DNA from: a virus
Taxonomy: Duplodnaviria > Caudoviricetes
Direction: 5' to 3' (one strand)
Length of the DNA: 64,000 bases
IMG/VR virus record: IMGVR_UViG_3300009185_000001
Span: 32,001 to 96,000 of that record
Shown: one piece after another, positions 267 to 57,038 of the stretch
Numbering within the stretch: the first letter of the stretch is position 1
Layout of the letters: each line of letters starts with the position of its first letter
Notes under the pieces: generated by a model
Told to the model about the DNA's origin: nothing
Databases searched by the model: none
What the model saw: only the letters and a program-made list of their open reading frames with translations
Made by a program: the position numbers and the translations under genes

Positions 267-602
267 TTATTCGTAGGACAAGTCAAGCCAATTTGTATCG
301 TCTGGCATTATTTCTACATTTACTCCAGCTTCTTTGGATTTGTTGATAATGTCCTGCAAAACTCCGTGACCATAGATAGTAGCACCATAACGATTTTCAT
401 TGCAAGAATAAACAGAACCAGAATAACCTTTAAACAGATAAAAATTTTCTTCTTTTGTAACTTTTGTAATACCGCTATTTAGTTTCCAAGAGTCTTCACT
501 TAAATAACCTCCATACCAACAAGCAAATACTTTATAAGTCAAAGGAAATTTTTTTCCCTCAATCTTGACAACTAGCCATTTGTCCGGTGTGTATTGTTTC
601 AT
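267..602 (-). CDS. Conserved phage hypothetical protein
   Basis: 111 aa ORF; PDKWLVVKI...WYGGY...WKLNSGI...GYSGSVY pattern resembles a common phage hypothetical family. Confidence 0.75.
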   Translation of the reverse strand: MKQYTPDKWLVVKIEGKKFPLTYKVFACWYGGYLSEDSWKLNSGITKVTKEENFYLFKGYSGSVYSCNENRYGATIYGHGVLQDIINKSKEAGVNVEIMPDDTNWLDLSYE

Positions 603-659
603 AAATTACTATTTAAAATATTTTAAAGTATTTTTAATTTTTACTCTAAAAATACATTC

Positions 660-1958
660 ATCTGAGATAAGTATAATAAATGATCGGGAAATGTCAAGAA
701 CTAAAAGAGAACGAAATGCATAAAGCATTTAAGTTCCGTTTGCTTCCTACAAAGGAGCAAGAAGTTCTTTTAGCAAAGCACTTTGGATGTTCTAGATTCA
801 TCTATAATCACTTTTTATCTGAAAAGCAAAAACATTATTTGGAAAACAAAACAACGTTGAATTTTAATCAATGTGCAGGAAATTTAGTAGCTAAGAAAAA
901 AGAAGAAGGATATGAATGGTTAAAAGAAGTTAATTCGCAAGTTCTTATATCCACTCTAATGAATTTGGAAACAGCTTATGGCAATTTTTTTAAAAAGAAA
1001 TCTAAGTTCCCTCGTTTTAAATCAAAAAAGAATAAAAATTCGTTTCAGATCCCTCAACATATTTCTTTAAAAGAAGAAAATGTAGTTCAAATACCAAAGT
1101 TCAAAGAAGGATTAAAATTTGTTAAACATAGAGAACTAAAAGGAGAAATTAAATCAGCAACCATTTCCAAATTAACTACAGGAAAATACTACATTTCCTT
1201 CCTGTGCGTTGTGGAAAAGCCAATTAAACACAAGAAAACAGGAAAGAGCATTGGAATTGATTTGGGGTTGAAAGACTTCATTATTACTTCTGAAGAACAG
1301 AGATATTGTAATCCGAAGTTCACTAAGAAGTATGAAGCTAAGTTAGCTAAAAAGCAAAGAATTTTAAGTAGAAAAGAAAAAGGATCAAAAGGAAGAGACA
1401 AAGCTAGAATAGCTGTTGCAAAGGTACATGAGAAGATAACCAATTCTCGTAATGATATGCAACATAAAGTTTCTTCTAAGTTAGTAAAAGACTACGATCT
1501 AATTGCAATAGAAGACCTGAATGTTAAAGGAATGGTTAAAAACCATAAACTCGCTAAAGCAATATCAGATGTAGCTTGGTCAAGCTTTGTGACCAAATTA
1601 AAGTACAAAGCACAATGGAATGATAAAGAAGTGATCACTATAGATCGTTTTTATCCTTCCAGCAAAACATGTAGTTGCTGTGATCAGGTCAAAGAGAGTC
1701 TTTCATTGGATGAAAGAACTTGGACTTGTTCTAAATGCAATACAATACATGATAGAGATGTTAATGCTTCAAAGAATATTTTAAGAAGAGCATTAGCAAT
1801 TCAATCGGCAGGAACTGTCGATAACAGGAATGGAGCTAAGGTAAGACCAAAGGAGATCTCAAAGGTTTCTAGAGGCACTGGCGTTGAAGTTCTTAAAAAG
1901 AAGAATGGACGTAAGTACATTCTGAAGCCAGTAGGTCTTTAGCCTACTGGCAGTTCAC
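660..1958 (+). mobile_element. Solo TnpB (IS1341-like) element with no tnpA; left boundary uncertain
   Basis: tnpB in opposite orientation to flanking genes; right-end hairpin then ...AGTTCAC; no Y1 transposase nearby. Confidence 0.7.
680..1942 (+). CDS. tnpB: IS200/IS605-family TnpB RNA-guided endonuclease
   Basis: N-terminal HTH (KAFKFRLLPT...FGCSRFIYN), RuvC-I GIDLG, RuvC-II IAIEDL, Zn ribbon CSCC/CSKC, RuvC-III HDRDVNASKNI; all three catalytic residues present; alternative start at 716. Confidence 0.95.
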   Translation: MIGKCQELKENEMHKAFKFRLLPTKEQEVLLAKHFGCSRFIYNHFLSEKQKHYLENKTTLNFNQCAGNLVAKKKEEGYEWLKEVNSQVLISTLMNLETAYGNFFKKKSKFPRFKSKKNKNSFQIPQHISLKEENVVQIPKFKEGLKFVKHRELKGEIKSATISKLTTGKYYISFLCVVEKPIKHKKTGKSIGIDLGLKDFIITSEEQRYCNPKFTKKYEAKLAKKQRILSRKEKGSKGRDKARIAVAKVHEKITNSRNDMQHKVSSKLVKDYDLIAIEDLNVKGMVKNHKLAKAISDVAWSSFVTKLKYKAQWNDKEVITIDRFYPSSKTCSCCDQVKESLSLDERTWTCSKCNTIHDRDVNASKNILRRALAIQSAGTVDNRNGAKVRPKEISKVSRGTGVEVLKKKNGRKYILKPVGL

Positions 1959-1978
1959 CTGGACAATACTCACTCACG
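1790..1978 (+). ncRNA. Putative omega/reRNA (scaffold overlapping tnpB 3' end; guide from ~1959)
   Basis: Hairpin GCCAGTAGG-tctttag-CCTACTGGC (1927-1951) followed by AGTTCAC; TnpB omegaRNAs are known to overlap the ORF end and transposon right end; 5' boundary is a guess. Confidence 0.6.
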
Positions 1979-2297
1979 ATTCAATAATAAATTCACCCTC
2001 TTTGCATTTATCTGGAGAAAGATATAAAGAAATTGTTTGTTCTTCATTAACCCATGTTCCAAAAAGAACTGGAAATTCTAAAGTATCTCCGTCATTCTTT
2101 TCGACTTTATATTTTGAAGACATTTGAATGTATTTGTAAATTTTTGGTCCACAATATAGAGTATTAAGATCTACACTGTACTTCCCATAAAAACTCTTTG
2201 TACTAGACAAAAATTCATCAATTTTTTTAATGATTTCGCTAGGAGTTAGTGTAGATATATTTTCTATTATATTTTCTAGTTCGTATGTTATTTTCAT
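1974..2297 (-). CDS. Hypothetical protein
   Basis: 107 aa ORF in tightly packed minus-strand run. Confidence 0.6.
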   Translation of the reverse strand: MKITYELENIIENISTLTPSEIIKKIDEFLSSTKSFYGKYSVDLNTLYCGPKIYKYIQMSSKYKVEKNDGDTLEFPVLFGTWVNEEQTISLYLSPDKCKEGEFIIES

Positions 2298-2300
2298 AAA

Positions 2301-2501
2301 TTAAAAATGATCTGGAATGTTTCTAATAGCTTGATCAAGCTTCTTATACAGGTTTGGAATCTTTGTTTCGTTTTGTTTTTCTTCGGTATATAGTTTTCCT
2401 TCAAACCAAATCTTACCAGTAGAGTCTTTTATTTCAATTTTATGAAATATAGTTTCATTTTGAAACATTCTATAAATTTTTGTTGTTAATTCGTCGTTCA
2501 T
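2301..2501 (-). CDS. Hypothetical protein
   Basis: 66 aa ORF; ATGA overlap with upstream ORF. Confidence 0.55.
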   Translation of the reverse strand: MNDELTTKIYRMFQNETIFHKIEIKDSTGKIWFEGKLYTEEKQNETKIPNLYKKLDQAIRNIPDHF

Positions 2502-3506: not shown

Positions 3507-3889
3507 AATAATTCTGGATGTTCAAACTTGTTCCCAATTACTTTTACTTTGCTTTTATAGATGGCATTAGAAAGATTATGTAACCACACATGAGCCAGTG
3601 TTCCTTCAACAGACACTGCTTTAACCGAAAGCAAATAAGCTGCATCTGCATAGGATACTACAGCGGTATATTTTTGAGAATCTTTGTTTGTCAAAGGTCT
3701 TTCATATTCTAAAATATCCCCTTCCCAAATTTCTTTATTATTGCAATCTTTCATTCCTGTGTATTGGGAAGGAACTAGAATACTCCATTCTCTCTCATCA
3801 AACAATTCATCAACAAGTCCATTGTATTTGTATTGTTGTACAAATGCTTTTCCCTGCGGACTCCAAAAACGAAATTTTATTGTTCTCAT
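3503..3889 (-). CDS. YopX-family protein
   Basis: IKFRFW...QYTGMKDCNNKEIWEGDIL...VIGNKFEHPELL is the YopX signature; start placed at MRTIKF. Confidence 0.85.
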   Translation of the reverse strand: MRTIKFRFWSPQGKAFVQQYKYNGLVDELFDEREWSILVPSQYTGMKDCNNKEIWEGDILEYERPLTNKDSQKYTAVVSYADAAYLLSVKAVSVEGTLAHVWLHNLSNAIYKSKVKVIGNKFEHPELL

Positions 3890-4419: not shown

Positions 4420-5091
4420 TTATTCGTGTTGTTTTAATTCTATTTTACCACTGTCATCAATCATAGCATAGGTAATCGGTAACTCACACTGAGAACCTAA
4501 ATTTACGCATTCTACTCCACCTACATAGTATTGTTTAGGAACGTGTGTATGACCAAAACAAACTGCATCATACTGGTTATTGTAGCAATACTGAGCAATA
4601 CGGACAGTTAAATCATGCGCTGCTCCGTGCCATGTTTTAATTTTAGTTTTAAGTTTTCTTGTCAGCTTTTGCTTCTTGTCTAGTTTTTGTAGAATATAAT
4701 ATATGCCAGACGCTAATTCTGTCAAAAACGGCTTTGTAGTAATAAAAAAATCAAACTTATCACCATGAGTAAAAAGTATTCTTTTATGGTTAATTGTTTG
4801 CGAATATTCATCTACAAATTCAAACCCAAGAAGAGCGGAAATTGTTTCTAGATCTTTATCATGATTTCCTTTAATAAAGATACATTTTTTATTTTTTGAT
4901 ATTTTTCTTAAAGTTGAAAGAATTTTCCATTGTTGTTTGCAAAGTCTGTGAATATTGTAACTATCCAGTAAGTCTCCACAAATTATTAAAGTATCATATT
5001 TTTCATTTTCTAGTAAATGTAAAGTCAAACTTGCTTGGCAAATTGGACTACCTAAATGTAAATCAGAAAGAGCTAAAATCATATTTTCCAA
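4420..5091 (-). CDS. Calcineurin-like metallophosphoesterase, UDP-2,3-diacylglucosamine hydrolase (LpxH)-like
   Basis: SDLHLG, GDLLD, GNHD, HGD, GHTH motifs in order. Confidence 0.8.
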   Translation of the reverse strand: MENMILALSDLHLGSPICQASLTLHLLENEKYDTLIICGDLLDSYNIHRLCKQQWKILSTLRKISKNKKCIFIKGNHDKDLETISALLGFEFVDEYSQTINHKRILFTHGDKFDFFITTKPFLTELASGIYYILQKLDKKQKLTRKLKTKIKTWHGAAHDLTVRIAQYCYNNQYDAVCFGHTHVPKQYYVGGVECVNLGSQCELPITYAMIDDSGKIELKQHE

Positions 5092-5348
5092 GTTTTAGTT
5101 TCTACAGTGTCAAAACATTGGGAGCATGGTTCTGGATCGTGTTCATAATCATCATATTGAAACAATTGCACAACGTCTTGAAAGGATATAGAATTTTGTT
5201 TAATTCCTTCTTTTACTTTAACAAAAAGATAATCTAATATTTCTTCTTGTTTTTCTAAAGATATCTCAGAAAGAGGCTGATCATTTACATAAAAATTAAA
5301 TGCAGTGCAGCCCGTTACTTCTTCAAATAAATATTTAGTGTTTTCCAT
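5079..5348 (-). CDS. Hypothetical protein
   Basis: 89 aa ORF with C-terminal CxxC. Confidence 0.55.
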   Translation of the reverse strand: MENTKYLFEEVTGCTAFNFYVNDQPLSEISLEKQEEILDYLFVKVKEGIKQNSISFQDVVQLFQYDDYEHDPEPCSQCFDTVETKTWKI

Positions 5349-6394: not shown

Positions 6395-7375
6395 ATGACC
6401 AAATTAAATAATACGGAACGCGAAGAGTTTATATGTCAAGCATACCTTAACAGGACGCACACTACAACACAGCTTCAACAAGAATTTAGAATATATCCAA
6501 ATGAAATATACAAAGTGTTAAAGAAAAACAATATAGAACTCAGAGGTGCAAATTTACCAAAAGAAAAAGCATTAAAAATTTGCGAAGAATACAAAAGCGG
6601 AAAAAGCTTCAAAAAAGTATGCAAAGATTTGAATGTAGCTGAATCTACAGTGATAAAAATTTTAAAAAAATATAAGGTAGAAACGAGAAAAGACGCAGGA
6701 CAATTTTCAAGAGTCTACAATTTAGACGAAACGATATTAAAAAATATAGATACCTTTGAAAAGGCTCAATTTTTAGGGTTGATATACTCGGATGGATCTT
6801 TATCTAAATACAATAAAAATATATCAATTAGGTTAAGAGAAGATGATAAAAACTACTTGGATGATTGGAGAATTAATTTTCTAAAATCTAATAAACCAAT
6901 GAATTATACATTCAAACCTATAACAATAAGCCCACTTAATAAAAAAGAATATAAAAATACTTATGGAGCATTCATTCTTGATATTTCATCTATAAACGTA
7001 TACAAAGATGCATTAAAATTGGGATTGTGTCCAAACAAAACTAAAGCAAACCTACCAATGCCAAACATTCCGGAAGAACTAAAAATAGCATTTATTTTAG
7101 GATTATTTGAAGGAGATGGAACTGTGGCGTATTGTTTAAGCAATAGAAGCCGATATTTTTCCATAGCTTGTCAAGAAAATATGGGATTAGATATCAAAAA
7201 ATACTTTGACTCTATTGGATTGTTTTCTTCTTTCTATAAAAGAAAATATATATGTACAGTATCAATCAAAAGAAAGGAAGATCTTAAAAAACTTTATAAT
7301 TTGCTCTATCAAGATACATCAATATACATGAAAAGAAAGAAGAAAAAATTTGAGGAAGCTTTAGATGCTTTTTAA
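6395..7375 (+). CDS. Free-standing double-motif LAGLIDADG homing endonuclease with N-terminal HTH repeats
   Basis: FLGLIYSDGS and FILGLFEGDG motifs; two HTH-like segments at the N-terminus. Confidence 0.85.
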   Translation: MTKLNNTEREEFICQAYLNRTHTTTQLQQEFRIYPNEIYKVLKKNNIELRGANLPKEKALKICEEYKSGKSFKKVCKDLNVAESTVIKILKKYKVETRKDAGQFSRVYNLDETILKNIDTFEKAQFLGLIYSDGSLSKYNKNISIRLREDDKNYLDDWRINFLKSNKPMNYTFKPITISPLNKKEYKNTYGAFILDISSINVYKDALKLGLCPNKTKANLPMPNIPEELKIAFILGLFEGDGTVAYCLSNRSRYFSIACQENMGLDIKKYFDSIGLFSSFYKRKYICTVSIKRKEDLKKLYNLLYQDTSIYMKRKKKKFEEALDAF

Positions 7376-15724: not shown

Positions 15725-18502
15725 TTATGCTTCACATGATTTACATGTCAAGATAGATCTTGCAAGCTCCTGGGCTGGATTTGCACTACGTTGATAATAC
15801 AATGATTTAATCCCCTGTTCCCAAGCAAAGATCATAAGTTCATTTACTTCTTTTGGCTTTGTATTTGGTGGAATCATTATATTTAAACTCTGTCCTTGAT
15901 CAATATATTTTTGACGTTGAGCAGCTTGAATAATGATTTCTTTTTGTGAAATTTCACCAAATGTTTTAAACACTTCTTTTTCATTATCAGAAAGAAAATC
16001 TAAATGTTGAACCGATCCACCATGAACTAAAATAGACTTCCAAGTATCATCATCGTGTTTACCTTTTTCTTTCAAAAGATTTTTAAGATGTGGATTTTTA
16101 TTTGTAAATTTACCTTTAGCAAGGTCTTTGACATAATAGTTACTATTCAATGGTTCAATACTAGGCGATACTTGCCCAAGAATAAAGCTGGATGAGGTTG
16201 TCGGAGCAACTGCAAGGGTTGTTGTATTTCTCCTAGCATATTCGGTTCCTTCGTAAATTGGAGCTTTTCCAAGAGTCTGTGCTAAAAATCTTGTTGCGTA
16301 ATCAGCGCGTTTTCTAATATCTCCCCAAATTTGATTATTTAACATCTTCGCTTCCATTGATTCAAACGCAATCATTTTAGATTGCAACAAAGAATGCCAA
16401 CCAAGAACACCGACACCCAATGCTCTTTGATTCATAGCAAACTTTCTAGGTGCTTCCATGAACTTCATTCCTTCGGTTTTTTCGATGAACTCAGACATTA
16501 CAGCATCCAAAAAGTAAACTAAAACCTCTACTGTATCGGAGGTCCATTCTTCCCAAGTTTCCAAGTTTAGAGAAGAAAGATCACACACAAAAGATTCATC
16601 TTCTGAATTAGAAAGCATAATTTCTGAGCAATTATGAGTAATAAATCCATTACACACCCAATGATGCTCTTCTGAATCAACGCTAACGCAATAAACGTCT
16701 TCTTTTCCAACATATTCAATGGATTGAACTTTGTAGAATTTTTTAGTGTTGTTTCTATATTCCTTTTCTTCTATTTTAATTTTTTTTCTACTCAAGAAAC
16801 TCGTGTTTTTTTCAAAAACAAGTGCATCATTTTTATTTCCAATAATAAGTCGATAGCAATCTTTACATTCATAATGTTTTTTACCACCTTTACCATCAGG
16901 TAATAGTGTTTTACCAGCTTCTCTAAGAATTCTAATAGAGGTTTGCATTCCAAGATTAGCCAAAATTATCTGAATTTCTTCTAAAAATTCTTTATTAATA
17001 GATGCTAATGAAATTTGTACTGGTTCGCCATCAGATTTTGATTTAAAAACCGTACCATCTGCATAATAAAGACCTTTAATATATTGCCATTGTGTCTCTT
17101 CGTTAGAAGACCAAATCCAATCTGGCACATATCCCTTTTCAAAATTGAGTGCCTTTTTCAAAGCCTTTGACGTTAATCTCTTTTTTAAAGATGAACCCTC
17201 TTGAACCACGCAGTCTCTAAAAATTGGATTTTCATAAATTCTTTTATTATAACTAGAAATTTGAGTTTTATATTCATTGCAAACATAATCATGATATGAC
17301 TGAACTTCATTTAAAAGATCAAAATCATTTTCCCATAAATCAATCATAATAAAATCTTTATGTTGAGTACCGTCGGCTTGATATAACCCAAGCAGAAATG
17401 CTTCTTTTGGCATATTATTGTCTCCAAAAAGTCCTTTGTTTGTTTGAATTGCAACCGAATCACCAATTTTTAAATCTTCACATGCTACATCTCTCGTAAT
17501 TATCACTTGAGGTTCGTTTGTTTTTTGAGTTCTTTTATCAAAAACAGAAACTTTATGGTAAGACGTAATTTTGTGTGTCATACCGTTTTCTAATGTAATT
17601 TTAAATACATCAGCGTTATTTTCTATAAGTCTCATTGGAGAAGATTTTACTATTTTATTATTGTCAAATAAAGTTAATTCTTTTCCAATTTCATAAAGTT
17701 CCTTTGCTGTCAAAATGCCAAAGTTGGAAGGAACTCTTTGATCACCTGTTACACACAAATTAGAATTATTAATTTTCAATCCTTTATCTTTATAAATTTG
17801 CGGAGCTTGATTATTAACATTGTCACTAAAAAGAATATATGGATATCCAGATTCAAAACGCTTTTTAATAACAAGACCCCAAATTTTACGAGCATCTTTA
17901 TCACCATCAATCATTTTTTTCATCCATTCATCGGAAACCGAAACTCCAATTGATAAATCTTGAATATCGCATCCATCGGATTTAATCTTCAAAAACTCTT
18001 CAATATCCGGATGATCGATTGGAAGATATGCAGCAAATGATCCCCTACGAACATTTCCCTGTGAAACAACATTCATGAGTTTATCAAACAATTCCATGAA
18101 ATGTACCGAGCCTGTAGATTCTCCACCGGATGAAATCGGTGTTCCTCTTCCTCTAAGACCACCAAAATATGCAGATGTACCGCCACCGTGTTTTGTCATT
18201 ACAGCAGTCTCAGAAACCTTCTCCATGATTCCTTCCATAGTGTCGGGAATGTAAGAACCAAAGCAACTAATAGGCAATCCTCTTTTGCGTCCAAAATTTG
18301 ACCAGATGGGCGAACTCAAACTGAAAAAACCCCTGGACATATAATCCTCAAATTTATCAGCAAACCCTTCACATTTTAAATATTTTTCCGCTGCTTCTGC
18401 AATATCTCTAATTCTCTGTTCTGCTGTTTCTCCTTCTAACAAGTACCCTCTTTCGAGAAATTTTCTTGAGTCTTTGTTTAGCCATTCGTATTTGTTTGTC
18501 AT
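15725..18502 (-). CDS. nrdA: Ribonucleotide reductase class Ia alpha subunit, intein-containing
   Basis: LSSPIW, ISCF, GGGTS, RRGSFAAY, SNL-[intein]-CSEI, APTTSSS, GIKSLYY, terminal CxxC. Confidence 0.95.
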   Translation of the reverse strand: MTNKYEWLNKDSRKFLERGYLLEGETAEQRIRDIAEAAEKYLKCEGFADKFEDYMSRGFFSLSSPIWSNFGRKRGLPISCFGSYIPDTMEGIMEKVSETAVMTKHGGGTSAYFGGLRGRGTPISSGGESTGSVHFMELFDKLMNVVSQGNVRRGSFAAYLPIDHPDIEEFLKIKSDGCDIQDLSIGVSVSDEWMKKMIDGDKDARKIWGLVIKKRFESGYPYILFSDNVNNQAPQIYKDKGLKINNSNLCVTGDQRVPSNFGILTAKELYEIGKELTLFDNNKIVKSSPMRLIENNADVFKITLENGMTHKITSYHKVSVFDKRTQKTNEPQVIITRDVACEDLKIGDSVAIQTNKGLFGDNNMPKEAFLLGLYQADGTQHKDFIMIDLWENDFDLLNEVQSYHDYVCNEYKTQISSYNKRIYENPIFRDCVVQEGSSLKKRLTSKALKKALNFEKGYVPDWIWSSNEETQWQYIKGLYYADGTVFKSKSDGEPVQISLASINKEFLEEIQIILANLGMQTSIRILREAGKTLLPDGKGGKKHYECKDCYRLIIGNKNDALVFEKNTSFLSRKKIKIEEKEYRNNTKKFYKVQSIEYVGKEDVYCVSVDSEEHHWVCNGFITHNCSEIMLSNSEDESFVCDLSSLNLETWEEWTSDTVEVLVYFLDAVMSEFIEKTEGMKFMEAPRKFAMNQRALGVGVLGWHSLLQSKMIAFESMEAKMLNNQIWGDIRKRADYATRFLAQTLGKAPIYEGTEYARRNTTTLAVAPTTSSSFILGQVSPSIEPLNSNYYVKDLAKGKFTNKNPHLKNLLKEKGKHDDDTWKSILVHGGSVQHLDFLSDNEKEVFKTFGEISQKEIIIQAAQRQKYIDQGQSLNIMIPPNTKPKEVNELMIFAWEQGIKSLYYQRSANPAQELARSILTCKSCEA
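16631..17755 (-). mobile_element. Contiguous 375 aa intein with LAGLIDADG endonuclease in nrdA
   Basis: Begins CVTGDQRV after NSNL; ends GFITHN before the catalytic Cys (CSE); internal LLGLYQADG and IKGLYYADG. Confidence 0.93.
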
Positions 18503-24233: not shown

Positions 24234-24662
24234 TTATTCTTTTATAAAAGTTGGAGCTGAGAGTGCGCTTTGATTGCTTATAACTGGTTCTGTAATTCTA
24301 GCAACTGTAAAATTGATATTAACAAAATTCCTCTTTTCGCATGAATCACACACAAATTCTACTCTTTCGTTTTCATCTGGAATAAAAGTCAATACATTAG
24401 GTTTTTTACAATAAGCACATTCCAATATTGTAGATAGTTGCTCTAACTTATCTAATTCTTTTTGTCTGGTGATTTGATAAAAATAGTTATTAAACAACCC
24501 CCCAAAAAAGGAAAATAGAATATATTGAATGCTAAGAGATAATAGAAATGCAGCAATATAATTCTGTCCCACCATCCAAGCAGATAGTGATATTAAAGCA
24601 GATGTTAGTGTTACAGTTAGTGTTGATTTTAGAAATAATATTACTTCTTTGTTAATTTTCAT
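24234..24662 (-). CDS. Membrane protein with Zn ribbon
   Basis: Two N-terminal TM segments; CAYC...CDSC. Confidence 0.65.
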   Translation of the reverse strand: MKINKEVILFLKSTLTVTLTSALISLSAWMVGQNYIAAFLLSLSIQYILFSFFGGLFNNYFYQITRQKELDKLEQLSTILECAYCKKPNVLTFIPDENERVEFVCDSCEKRNFVNINFTVARITEPVISNQSALSAPTFIKE

Positions 24663-26165: not shown

Positions 26166-26606
26166 CTAAGCACTCGGCTGATTTAAAGGGTTGTATTGTT
26201 TTCCGTTTGGTTGTTGTGATGTTTGTTGTGTAGTTTTTGTTCCCGATTGTTGATATGTAGTTGGATTTTCTCCTTGTTTTGCCTCTTGTTTTTCAACTGG
26301 TGTTTCAGTTGGTTTCAATTTATCAGCAACCGATAGAAAAGTTTCTAATTCTTTTGGAGATAGATTTGGATTTTCTGGATTGTTTTTTAGTTTTTCAAAA
26401 GCACTGTGTAAAGGATCATCTGCTGTACCGCTTGGTGTATCAAATAATTTAGAAGCAAGTGCCTTTGCGTTTGGGTTTGAATTTGCTTTTCCACTACTTG
26501 TAATAGCATTTCTAATATCTTCTACTGCTTTGTTAATAAGAGGATTTTGATTATCTTCTAACAATTGTTCACTAGCTTTATTTATAATTTTGTCAAAATT
26601 TTTCAT
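26166..26606 (-). CDS. Hypothetical protein
   Basis: 146 aa, Gln/Pro-rich tail. Confidence 0.55.
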   Translation of the reverse strand: MKNFDKIINKASEQLLEDNQNPLINKAVEDIRNAITSSGKANSNPNAKALASKLFDTPSGTADDPLHSAFEKLKNNPENPNLSPKELETFLSVADKLKPTETPVEKQEAKQGENPTTYQQSGTKTTQQTSQQPNGKQYNPLNQPSA

Positions 26607-31435: not shown

Positions 31436-32248
31436 ATGTCCGAAGAAAATAATAACATTTTAAATTTTAATGAAGCATTAAACCTATTAGACAATGCTTC
31501 TAAAGAATCGTTTTTAACCGAAGCCTATATTCCATCGTTAAAAAGAACCGTTAAAATAAAAGAAATTAATGCCAAACAACAGAAAACTATAATAGAATCT
31601 GCAATTGATTCTGCAATGGCCAAATCTACTTTTTCTAAGGTTTTTTATGATATTGTTTGTTCTAATTGCTTAGAAGAAAAGTCTGTAATAGAAACATTTA
31701 CTACAGTAGATAAGGCATCTATCGCATTTTCGATGCGATCACAAATTTCTGATAGTATTAAAGTAATTTTTCAAGAAGAACCTAAGATTGAAAACACTAT
31801 TATTTTAAATGATATTATTAGTAAATTTTTTAATTATACACATCCGAGTGAAAGTCTTATAAATTTTTCTAAAAATGGAGTTAATATAGATGTAAAAATT
31901 GATATTCCATTATTTTCTGAAGAAGCAAAGTTTGATAGTATTATCTACGGAAAAGAAAAGGTAGGAAATCAGGTAGAAGAAATTAAAAGCATTATTACAG
32001 GAGCCTTTTTAGGAGAAACTGCAAAGTATATTAAAGAAATTAACATGAATGGTGCTGATTTTAATTATAAAAAACTACAAACAACTCAAAAGGTACAATT
32101 TGTGGAGAAACTACCAGCTTCTTTAGTTCAAAATATTTTAGAAAAAATTGTAGAATGGAAAGCAGAAATTGATACTATCTGTACAGTTTCTCATGAAAAT
32201 ACAAATAAATTGATAGAAGTTAATAGTTTATTGTTTTTGACCAATTAG
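31436..32248 (+). CDS. Second baseplate hub assembly paralog (gp26-like)
   Basis: YIPSLKRTVKIKEINAKQQK...VDKASIAFSMR; precedes tape-measure-like gene. Confidence 0.5.
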   Translation: MSEENNNILNFNEALNLLDNASKESFLTEAYIPSLKRTVKIKEINAKQQKTIIESAIDSAMAKSTFSKVFYDIVCSNCLEEKSVIETFTTVDKASIAFSMRSQISDSIKVIFQEEPKIENTIILNDIISKFFNYTHPSESLINFSKNGVNIDVKIDIPLFSEEAKFDSIIYGKEKVGNQVEEIKSIITGAFLGETAKYIKEINMNGADFNYKKLQTTQKVQFVEKLPASLVQNILEKIVEWKAEIDTICTVSHENTNKLIEVNSLLFLTN

Positions 32249-56318: not shown

Positions 56319-57038
56319 TTAATTTTCGGTTTTGTCAACTGGAAGATTCCAACTAATAATTTTTTTAATGTGATTTAAAAAATCAGTTTGAGATAATTTG
56401 TTTTTCATCCAATTACAAGTTTTACAGCATGTACAAACATTATTTTTAGTATAACCTAATCTATTATCTATTCTATCCAATCCATTACGTTTCCAAATAT
56501 TTAAATTGCTAGATTTTGAATTATTACTTTCAATACTACCGCAATAAAAACATTTTTTTTCGCATAAAAAAACAAAATCACGAAAATTTAAAGAAAATTT
56601 TAAATTTCTATTTTTAGCATTTGATTTATACGAATTATACGTTTTAATTTTAGATGATTTTTTATCGGGATCACATCTACATCCTAAAAATTTTTTTCTC
56701 TTTAGTGCTGTTGCTCTGATTTTATATTCTTTTTTGCAATCTATACATTCACATAAATACAAATGACCCTGTTTACCATTACTTTTTGAATTTTTTTCTA
56801 AAAGTTTTAAAACTTTTAATTTTCCAAAAAAATTATCAGTTAAATCATTCCAAAAATCTTTTTTACAACCACAAGATATTTGTTTTTTTAAAAAATGACT
56901 TTGTATTATTGTTTCTTTACCACAATTACACAAACATCTAATATTAGAATGTTTTCCACTTTTATTAGAAGGTATTATCTCTAATACCGTTAAATTTTGA
57001 AATTTTTGATTTAAATGTATACTGCATCGTCTACCCAT
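56319..57038 (-). CDS. Free-standing HNH homing endonuclease
   Basis: Two CxCxCG-type N-terminal repeats; CFYCG...NGLDRIDNRLGYTKNNVCTCCKTCNWMK. Confidence 0.88.
   Translation of the reverse strand: MGRRCSIHLNQKFQNLTVLEIIPSNKSGKHSNIRCLCNCGKETIIQSHFLKKQISCGCKKDFWNDLTDNFFGKLKVLKLLEKNSKSNGKQGHLYLCECIDCKKEYKIRATALKRKKFLGCRCDPDKKSSKIKTYNSYKSNAKNRNLKFSLNFRDFVFLCEKKCFYCGSIESNNSKSSNLNIWKRNGLDRIDNRLGYTKNNVCTCCKTCNWMKNKLSQTDFLNHIKKIISWNLPVDKTEN

Follow-up and report, generated by a model that had tools for sequence, protein, structure and literature searches.

A transposase-less, left-end-deleted tnpB beside its predicted target gene in a freshwater T4-like phage: a candidate RNA-guided homing cassette

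Described TnpB systems and intronless homing

In chromosomes and plasmids, TnpB is already known to protect insertion sequences or to drive their spread. ISDra2 TnpB (PDB 8H1J and 8BF8; PMC8612924; PMC10097598) shares its domain order, D/E/D triad and CCCC zinc finger with the TnpB described here, which is encoded in a 64,000-nt stretch of phage DNA (hereafter, the window), and in both cases the omegaRNA overlaps the end of the ORF with a pseudoknot and takes its guide from the right flank. Unlike ISDra2, the window copy is without tnpA, has lost its left end and has TTTAT as its predicted TAM, and its guide matches another allele of a gene that is kept intact next door (gene X), not the donor joint. 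The TAM-contacting residues Y52, S56, K76, F77, and Q80 of ISDra2 correspond to F62, A66, S86, Q87, and I90 of the window protein. ISGst2 (TAM TTTAT, TEM TTCAC; bioRxiv 10.1101/2023.03.14.532601) resembles the window copy in its TAM (predicted here), its right-end motif, its tnpB-only organization and, probably, its mobilization in trans. The TnpB of ISGst2 restores the element after excision, whereas the window copy cannot be excised and its flanks are duplicated and non-contiguous.

TnpB can drive the spread of insertion sequences between plasmids (PMC11870625), and it does so without TnpA according to PMC13565253, where "non-restorative homing" is the term used. Like the plasmid TnpB gene drive (PMC11870625), the window TnpB would cut an element-free homolog by means of an RNA guide; on plasmids self and non-self are told apart by the presence of the insertion sequence, whereas here, in a lytic phage population, the distinction would also depend on the sequence of the neighboring gene. 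Intronless homing was defined for T4 (PMC2988022; PMC13565253). The window tnpB would resemble T4 segF, segB, and mobE (PMC2988022) as a stand-alone nuclease gene that adjoins its target gene and whose own allele is predicted to be resistant; putative promoters of neighboring genes are embedded in it, as promoters are in the free-standing endonuclease genes of T4 (PMC2988022), and its late-type motif reminds us of the late-promoter expression of the T4 intron endonucleases. The arrangement expected of a free-standing homing endonuclease is seen here at the sequence level, with the target in the neighboring gene of relatives and a differing allele at home. In the T4 enzymes a GIY-YIG or HNH protein sets the specificity; here it would come from an exchangeable RNA guide that transposase junctions provide. 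The target is 0.1 kb away, and the guide template carried along is a dead piece of the rival allele.

TldR proteins are nuclease-dead TnpB repressors of prophages. The window TnpB is phage-borne and transposase-less as they are, but its RuvC domain and right end are intact, and its guide matches a phage gene, not a host promoter. A role of TnpB in lytic phages in telling self from rival by the allele of a neighboring gene was not found in the literature searched, the coverage of which was incomplete.

The phage, the defective element, and its TnpB

The window covers positions 32,001 to 96,000 of IMG/VR record IMGVR_UViG_3300009185_000001 (G000), a complete virus genome of 202,880 bp that encodes T4-like DNA polymerase, helicase, tail sheath, tail tube, and terminase. 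Among public runs a freshwater metagenome, perhaps the source, was the sole full match, beside partial ones, and this list was not taken as evidence; the tnpB-gene X cassette was assembled in identical form in only two further data sets, one of which is perhaps the source sample. The tnpB gene lies antisense within a block of small minus-strand genes, with ordinary ORFs on both sides (Table 1). The product of gene X had no match in Pfam, NCBIfam, or PHROG; its relatives are encoded at 90 viral loci, and it falls in Atlas clusters of viral hypothetical proteins. Other nuclease genes were noted in the window, namely a LAGLIDADG-type endonuclease gene, free-standing and with HTH domains, which runs antisense in the block that holds tnpB (6395-7375, plus strand; TAAATA 5 nt 5' of its ATG), an HNH/endonuclease VII-like gene (56319-57038, minus strand; TAAATA 6 nt 5' of its ATG), and a gene for the ribonucleotide reductase large subunit with an intein-like insert bearing a LAGLIDADG domain (15725-18502, minus strand). 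In another phage (L242), a distinct 539-aa protein with a Cas12f1-like TNB domain is encoded 0.7 kb from gene X (1668-2470, minus strand).

Table 1. Features of the tnpB-gene X locus, in window coordinates.
Feature	Position	Strand	Basis or remark
Gene X, complete allele, 111 aa, conserved phage protein; target gene of the predicted guide	267..602	-	ORF; viral homologs
TAM position in own gene X allele: TTTGT (synonymous Asp codon), not the predicted TTTAT	579..583	+	
Replacement gene X 5' end, foreign start MKQYTP; 10/20 mismatches to guide, seed included	584..602	+	Letter-for-letter as in L005
TAAATA late-type motif, 7 nt before gene X start	610..615	-	Probable left junction TTTAA (612-616) at motif edge
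Residual left arm of the element; hairpin and its guide tetranucleotide deleted	617..679	+	63 nt long; 100-127 nt where the end is intact
TAAGTA late-type promoter motif of tnpB, 6 nt before ATG 680	668..673	+	Family-wide trait
Putative outward sigma-70-type promoter, TTGACA-16-TATACT, 11/12 consensus match; -35 in tnpB codons 5-6	670..697	-	Faces gene X
tnpB, 420 aa; RuvC D194/E278/D360, zinc finger C331/C334/C350/C353, A66 at TAM -1 contact position	680..1942	+	ORF, profile, alignment
Predicted omegaRNA scaffold overlapping the tnpB 3' end, with invariant GAA/TTC pseudoknot pair	1804..1958	+	Fold and covariation
Right end: GAAG guide tetranucleotide, hairpin 1927-1951, TCAC cleavage motif 1955-1958	1924..1958	+	Arm complementarity, family alignment
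Predicted guide; reverse complement of 19 nt displaced from the start of a different gene X allele (start codon GTG at 1977, VSEYCP)	1959..1978	+	
107-aa hypothetical gene, upstream; stop overlaps the displaced gene X GTG by 4 nt	1974..2297	-	As in empty-site phages

The tnpB product matched the NCBIfam NF038281 IS200_TnpB model over its full length (444.8 bits, cut-off 425) and aligned with ISDra2 TnpB at E 2e-74, its catalytic residues falling on D191, E278, and D361 of that protein and its CCCC zinc finger being intact. An IS607 identity was rejected (model score 193, below the cut-off of 350), and a nuclease-dead, TldR-like protein was ruled out by the intact RuvC triad. M1 is invariant in 11 close homologs, and an alternative start at an internal ATG (713-716 region), which is lost in L024 and L025, was discarded. 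Judging from profile and alignment, the window tnpB encodes a genuine IS200/IS605 TnpB inside a defective element, and it is the single copy of tnpB in G000, where no second one was found. Values of dN/dS in family comparisons (0.05-0.17), which mostly mirror history predating the left-end loss, point to purifying selection; for the window and L005 proteins, both from left-end-less copies, the value is 0.17.

The predicted omegaRNA region (1790-1958) folds better than 200/200 shuffles (z = -3.9). Across 21 copies, two-sided changes were seen at 17 of 36 pairs, as against five or fewer in slid controls, while 97.7% of the alignment cells are paired and the pseudoknot pairs do not vary. An Rfam search of the region gave chance matches only, and no second omegaRNA copy was found in the phage's own genome. 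The arms of the right-end hairpin (1927-1935 and 1943-1951) are 100% complementary and are followed by AGTTCAC at 1952-1958, and the right boundary of the element falls between 1958 and 1959; because family conservation stops exactly after 1958, the guide is taken to start at 1959. At the other side, the left-end hairpin, kept by 22 relatives 100-127 nt 5' of the start, is absent from the window copy, and TnpA could therefore no longer excise it; an AT-rich inverted repeat at 625-658 is a different feature and was rejected as the left-end hairpin. The flanks, which for a mobile IS200/IS605 element should be contiguous in the empty site, carry a 33-nt duplication in comparison with the empty sites L004 and L123. 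The left junction (TTTAA) is inferred only, as the left end is deleted; many family left junctions lie at the edge of the TAAATA motif of the leftward gene, a harmless site. No Y1 tnpA was found in the complete genome, nor any tnpA in 16 related records (most of them fragments) or beside matches to the left-end pattern, where L255 stops at the contig edge.

Of 259 ORFs, 45 have TAA[AG]TA at 4-11 nt 5' of the start (2.3 expected), and 10 have TAAGTA itself (0.2 expected). Among those with TAA[AG]TA are genes for a terminase subunit and the tail tube, as well as the two free-standing genes for protein endonucleases in the window; the term "late" is inferred from T4, and some non-structural genes such as nrdB have the motif too. 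Throughout G000 it stands only 5-9 nt before many starts and would yield nearly leaderless transcripts. In the tnpB family it was found, as TAAATA or TAAGTA, 5-13 nt 5' of the start in 29/29 copies examined, including those with intact left ends, as opposed to 0/21 bacterial relatives. Since mobile copies carry it as well, it is no sign that the window copy was domesticated; judging from this distribution, the motif is an adaptation of the insertion sequence lineage to phage that predates the left-end loss. The TAAGTA of tnpB overlaps the -10 of the putative outward promoter, which is kept, with its TTGAC, at 4/4 independent left-end-less loci that have a leftward gene (window/L005, L009, L012/L021, and L015).

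A first-pass annotation of this DNA had described intact RuvC D/E/D residues, the hairpin at 1927-1951 with AGTTCAC, the lack of tnpA and of an obvious left-end hairpin, and a TAAGTA placed before ATG 680 as it is before structural genes, all of which agrees with the results above; its view that the copy is immobilized is supported by the deleted left end and the absent tnpA. Its reading of the late promoter as a hint of co-option was not sustained, the motif being common to all 29 family copies.

The guide, the alleles of gene X, and the tnpB family

In related phages an intact 111-aa gene X comes straight after the 107-aa gene, the two overlapping by 4 nt. The right junction of the window copy lies 19 nt inside gene X, at a TAM position, and uninterrupted sites in seven contigs from several studies (L245-L248 and L251-L253) match the guide at 30/30 positions. 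The complete gene X of this phage begins with the start of another allele; it is preceded by a TAAATA of its own, reads TTTGT where the TAM would lie and departs from the guide at 10 of 20 positions, and no target with TAM and seed was found in the phage's genome. The presumed immunity of the own allele is independent of whether TTTGT is tolerated. The first-pass annotation had placed the guide at about 1959, antisense into the stop of the 1974-2297 gene; the start stands, and the guide is moreover the displaced start of gene X, which had been missed. The search for the guide elsewhere in the phage, which it had suggested, yielded no match with TAM and seed, and the empty site it had asked after is present in the seven contigs. 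Its proposal of RNA-guided homing against co-infecting relatives with the empty site is supported in that such sites exist; the perfect matches sampled have TTTGT in place of the predicted TTTAT.

As 7/7 of the perfect-match relatives carry TTTGT, no clearly sensitive target was sampled. Alleles with TTTAT (L002/L003, L254, and L240) have one to five mismatches to the guide, seed included. TTTAT together with a perfect seed was seen in 0/63 gene X haplotypes, and in an IMG/VR pattern search no TTTAT allele had a perfect seed, only two TTTGT alleles. A sweep making TAM and seed mutually exclusive was considered; the count among seed-matched haplotypes (0/6, P = 0.32) is not significant and shows neither a sweep nor its absence. 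The cleavage motifs of IS200/IS605 elements normally hold A at -2. Since, in addition, ISGst2 TnpB is sensitive to TAM changes (bioRxiv 10.1101/2023.03.14.532601), the TTTGT relatives may be escape alleles and the guide may be spent. Q80, which reads -2 in ISDra2, is I90 in the window TnpB, so that this protein may tolerate G at -2.

Close relatives of tnpB (63-97%) were seen in viral and metagenome contigs, at numerous sites with no relation to one another, and two of the contigs carry two each. Elements of the IS608 type follow a full pairing rule between guide and cleavage tetranucleotides, and precise right junctions at the TAM boundary require TnpA. In the family, whose junctions were positioned by eye, the tetranucleotide at the hairpin foot predicts the left junction in 21/22 copies (AAAA with TTAT, AAAT with TTAA, and AAAG with TTAC), as the end tetranucleotides of IS608 predict its cleavage sites, AAAG with TTAC among them (PMC3201880). 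Because the family ends obey this rule, some TnpA, probably host-derived, has acted on them. Four right junctions checked on empty sites gave TTTAT for L005, L009, and L015 and TTTAA for L021, and the predicted TAM of the family is TTTA(T/A/C). Residue 66 of TnpB corresponds to ISDra2 S56, the residue in contact with TAM base -1. Copies at TTTAT have A at this position, those at TTTAA have Q and those at TTTAC have C (exceptions, L014 and L023), a series of kin copies that amounts to three classes and not to 29 tests; from its A66 the window TnpB is predicted to recognize TTTAT. The tracking of the -1 base by residue 66 suggests that the nuclease keeps up with the insertion motif. This residue is encoded at window positions 875-877 (codon 66), and its classes across L005-L039 match the left-end tetranucleotides AAAA, AAAT, and AAAG; in the same copies the left-end tip between TAM and hairpin varies in length and sequence, and the hairpin foot is conserved.

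Family copies differ by dS of about 1, with dN/dS of 0.05-0.13. Apart from one phage-like MAG contig (L125), which is the same locus as L010, the best bacterial relative has 55% identity among the matches listed from 185,579 prokaryote genomes. Together with the failure to find tnpA, these figures indicate that the family is old in these phages and non-autonomous. Two observations on other copies may be added. L234 contains a protein-free mini element of this family (minus strand, about 4950-5340), in which a short filler joins a TTTAC junction and left-end hairpin to the full omegaRNA scaffold and right end; it could provide a guide in trans for a TnpB. G000 also contains empty sites of other family copies, at window 3534-3560 and at G000 24351-24375 and 26517-26545, the types being TTTAA with a 17-nt match (L021), TTTAT with a near match (L015), and a TTTGT variant (L009, in a YopX-like gene).

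A similar layout of duplicated and patched sequence was recognized at seven right junctions in six genes (window, L005, L011, L012/L021, L034, L010, and weakly L007), and none of the seven is a full self match. The duplication is 33 nt in the window, 154 nt at 71% identity in L011 and 37 nt in L012/L021. Among the remaining copies a score was possible only for L015, which inserted cleanly, and L009, which has a deletion of 20 nt; the share of duplicated copies lies between 7/26 (a lower bound) and 7/9. This count is biased, as a duplication is self-evident and a clean insertion is recognized only against a reference. The comparisons relied on were those of proteins and of empty sites, since an ungapped 30-nt self-scan misses short or recoded duplicates, including that of the window itself; a 9-nt self match in L022 and a 7/30 match in L030, near control levels or distant, were not counted. 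No letter differs between L005 and the window over the initial 29 nt of gene X, the spacer and some 530 nt of tnpB. The right junction of L005 is placed 48 nt deeper in gene X, and the 3' half of its tnpB shows patchy differences. The own allele of L005 has 6/20 mismatches to the L005 guide, for which 13/63 gene X haplotypes have TTTAT and a perfect 10-nt seed. Left and right junctions are shuffled among L020, L024, L025, and L030.

Origin and possible activity of the cassette

We give a little better than an even chance to the reading that the locus is a selfish, RNA-guided, free-standing homing cassette, possibly spent, formed from a left-end-deleted copy of a phage-resident, tnpB-only IS200/IS605 family. 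TnpA acting in trans would have made the right junction inside gene X, and the gene would have been restored when this insertion recombined with a second copy situated immediately 5' of a different gene X allele. If the exchange took place within tnpB, between a copy at a TAAATA edge and a new insertion that a relative carries a few dozen bases into the same gene, exactly the structure of the window would result, and with an active nuclease only those recombinants whose left allele escapes the new guide would survive. One-ended strand transfer or flank capture at an alternative TAM could have given the same end product; flexible boundary choice was reported for ISGst2 (bioRxiv 10.1101/2023.03.14.532601). 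After the loss of its left end the cassette would move by recombination only. Late in infection, TnpB with its omegaRNA would cut gene X of a co-infecting relative that bears TTTAT and a guide match, and recombination repair would copy the patch and tnpB into the cut relative, as in T4 intronless homing. Homing here would mean the spread of a selfish element, not a demonstrated benefit to the phage. In favor of this reading are the empty sites with their 30/30 guide match and the 33-nt duplication, the lack of a self target in the genome, the L005 cassette, which shares the left half but directs a second guide at gene X, the layout recurring at seven right junctions, purifying selection on TnpB together with a compensated omegaRNA, the tracking of the TAM by residue 66, the late motif common to tnpB and the free-standing endonuclease genes of the window, and the TnpB-driven spread described for plasmids. 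The guide may be largely spent, as the perfect-match relatives sampled carry TTTGT, and survival by itself would account for self-immunity if the nuclease was ever briefly active.

Somewhat unlikely, in our judgment, is a passive history, in which a non-autonomous insertion sequence broke gene X, recombination with another allele rescued it, and no homing from the window copy ever followed. The left hairpin would have been lost as it separated the outward promoter from the genes cut off from their operon, and tnpB would persist because the promoter -35 sits in its first codons and decay is slow. Consistent with this are the retention of the outward TTGAC promoter at all four left-end-less loci named above, the observation that embedded promoters favor retention of T4 endonuclease genes (PMC2988022), the shuffled junctions and the absence of a sensitive target for the window guide among those sampled. 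However, a promoter in codons 5-6 leaves the intact 420-aa ORF and the scaffold unexplained, the outward promoter is also kept by several intact copies, the L005 guide has many apparent targets, and the dN/dS between the window and L005 is low, though the differing part may come from a mobile copy.

We consider it improbable that the phage keeps TnpB as a domesticated weapon, gaining fitness by destroying or excluding competing relatives with or without copying. The late-type motif, the self-immune allele and the guide matches in relatives would fit such a role; the cassette is patchy, with an empty site in many close relatives, the late motif is older than the immobilization, the target, a small hypothetical gene, lies within a mosaic region, and the family insertions are scattered over many unrelated sites, all of which speaks against it. 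That a host IS605 element inserted recently, without any earlier history in phages, is already largely refuted and has a very small probability: the ends follow the TnpA rule, so TnpA did act, probably from a host, but the copy has no intact left end and the matches listed included no near-identical host copies with tnpA, the two marks that the first-pass annotation had named for a recent insertion. Moreover, the bacterial matches listed (barring phage-like L125) reach only 55%, the copies in related phages have diverged to dS of about 1, and the late motif, seen in all 29 family copies examined, was in none of the 21 bacterial relatives.

More broadly, and with a chance that we put slightly below even, we propose that in freshwater T4-like phages a late-promoter-rewired, tnpB-only insertion sequence family repeatedly yields transposase-independent cassettes that cut the rival allele and supply a resistant copy, the guide being swapped by recombination with fresh insertions. 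This would be a natural, re-programmable, RNA-guided form of intronless homing, against which TAM-escape alleles would already be present. If the homing reading is false, the locus is an ordinary stranded insertion sequence with a repaired neighbor. Apart from this, the copies of the tnpB family form a natural series along which a single TnpB residue changes with the TAM. If homing is true, two known selfish strategies would be joined in one locus, which would mark a route from a transposon to a stand-alone RNA-guided nuclease, and a natural gene drive with drive, sensitive, and resistant alleles would lie in public data.
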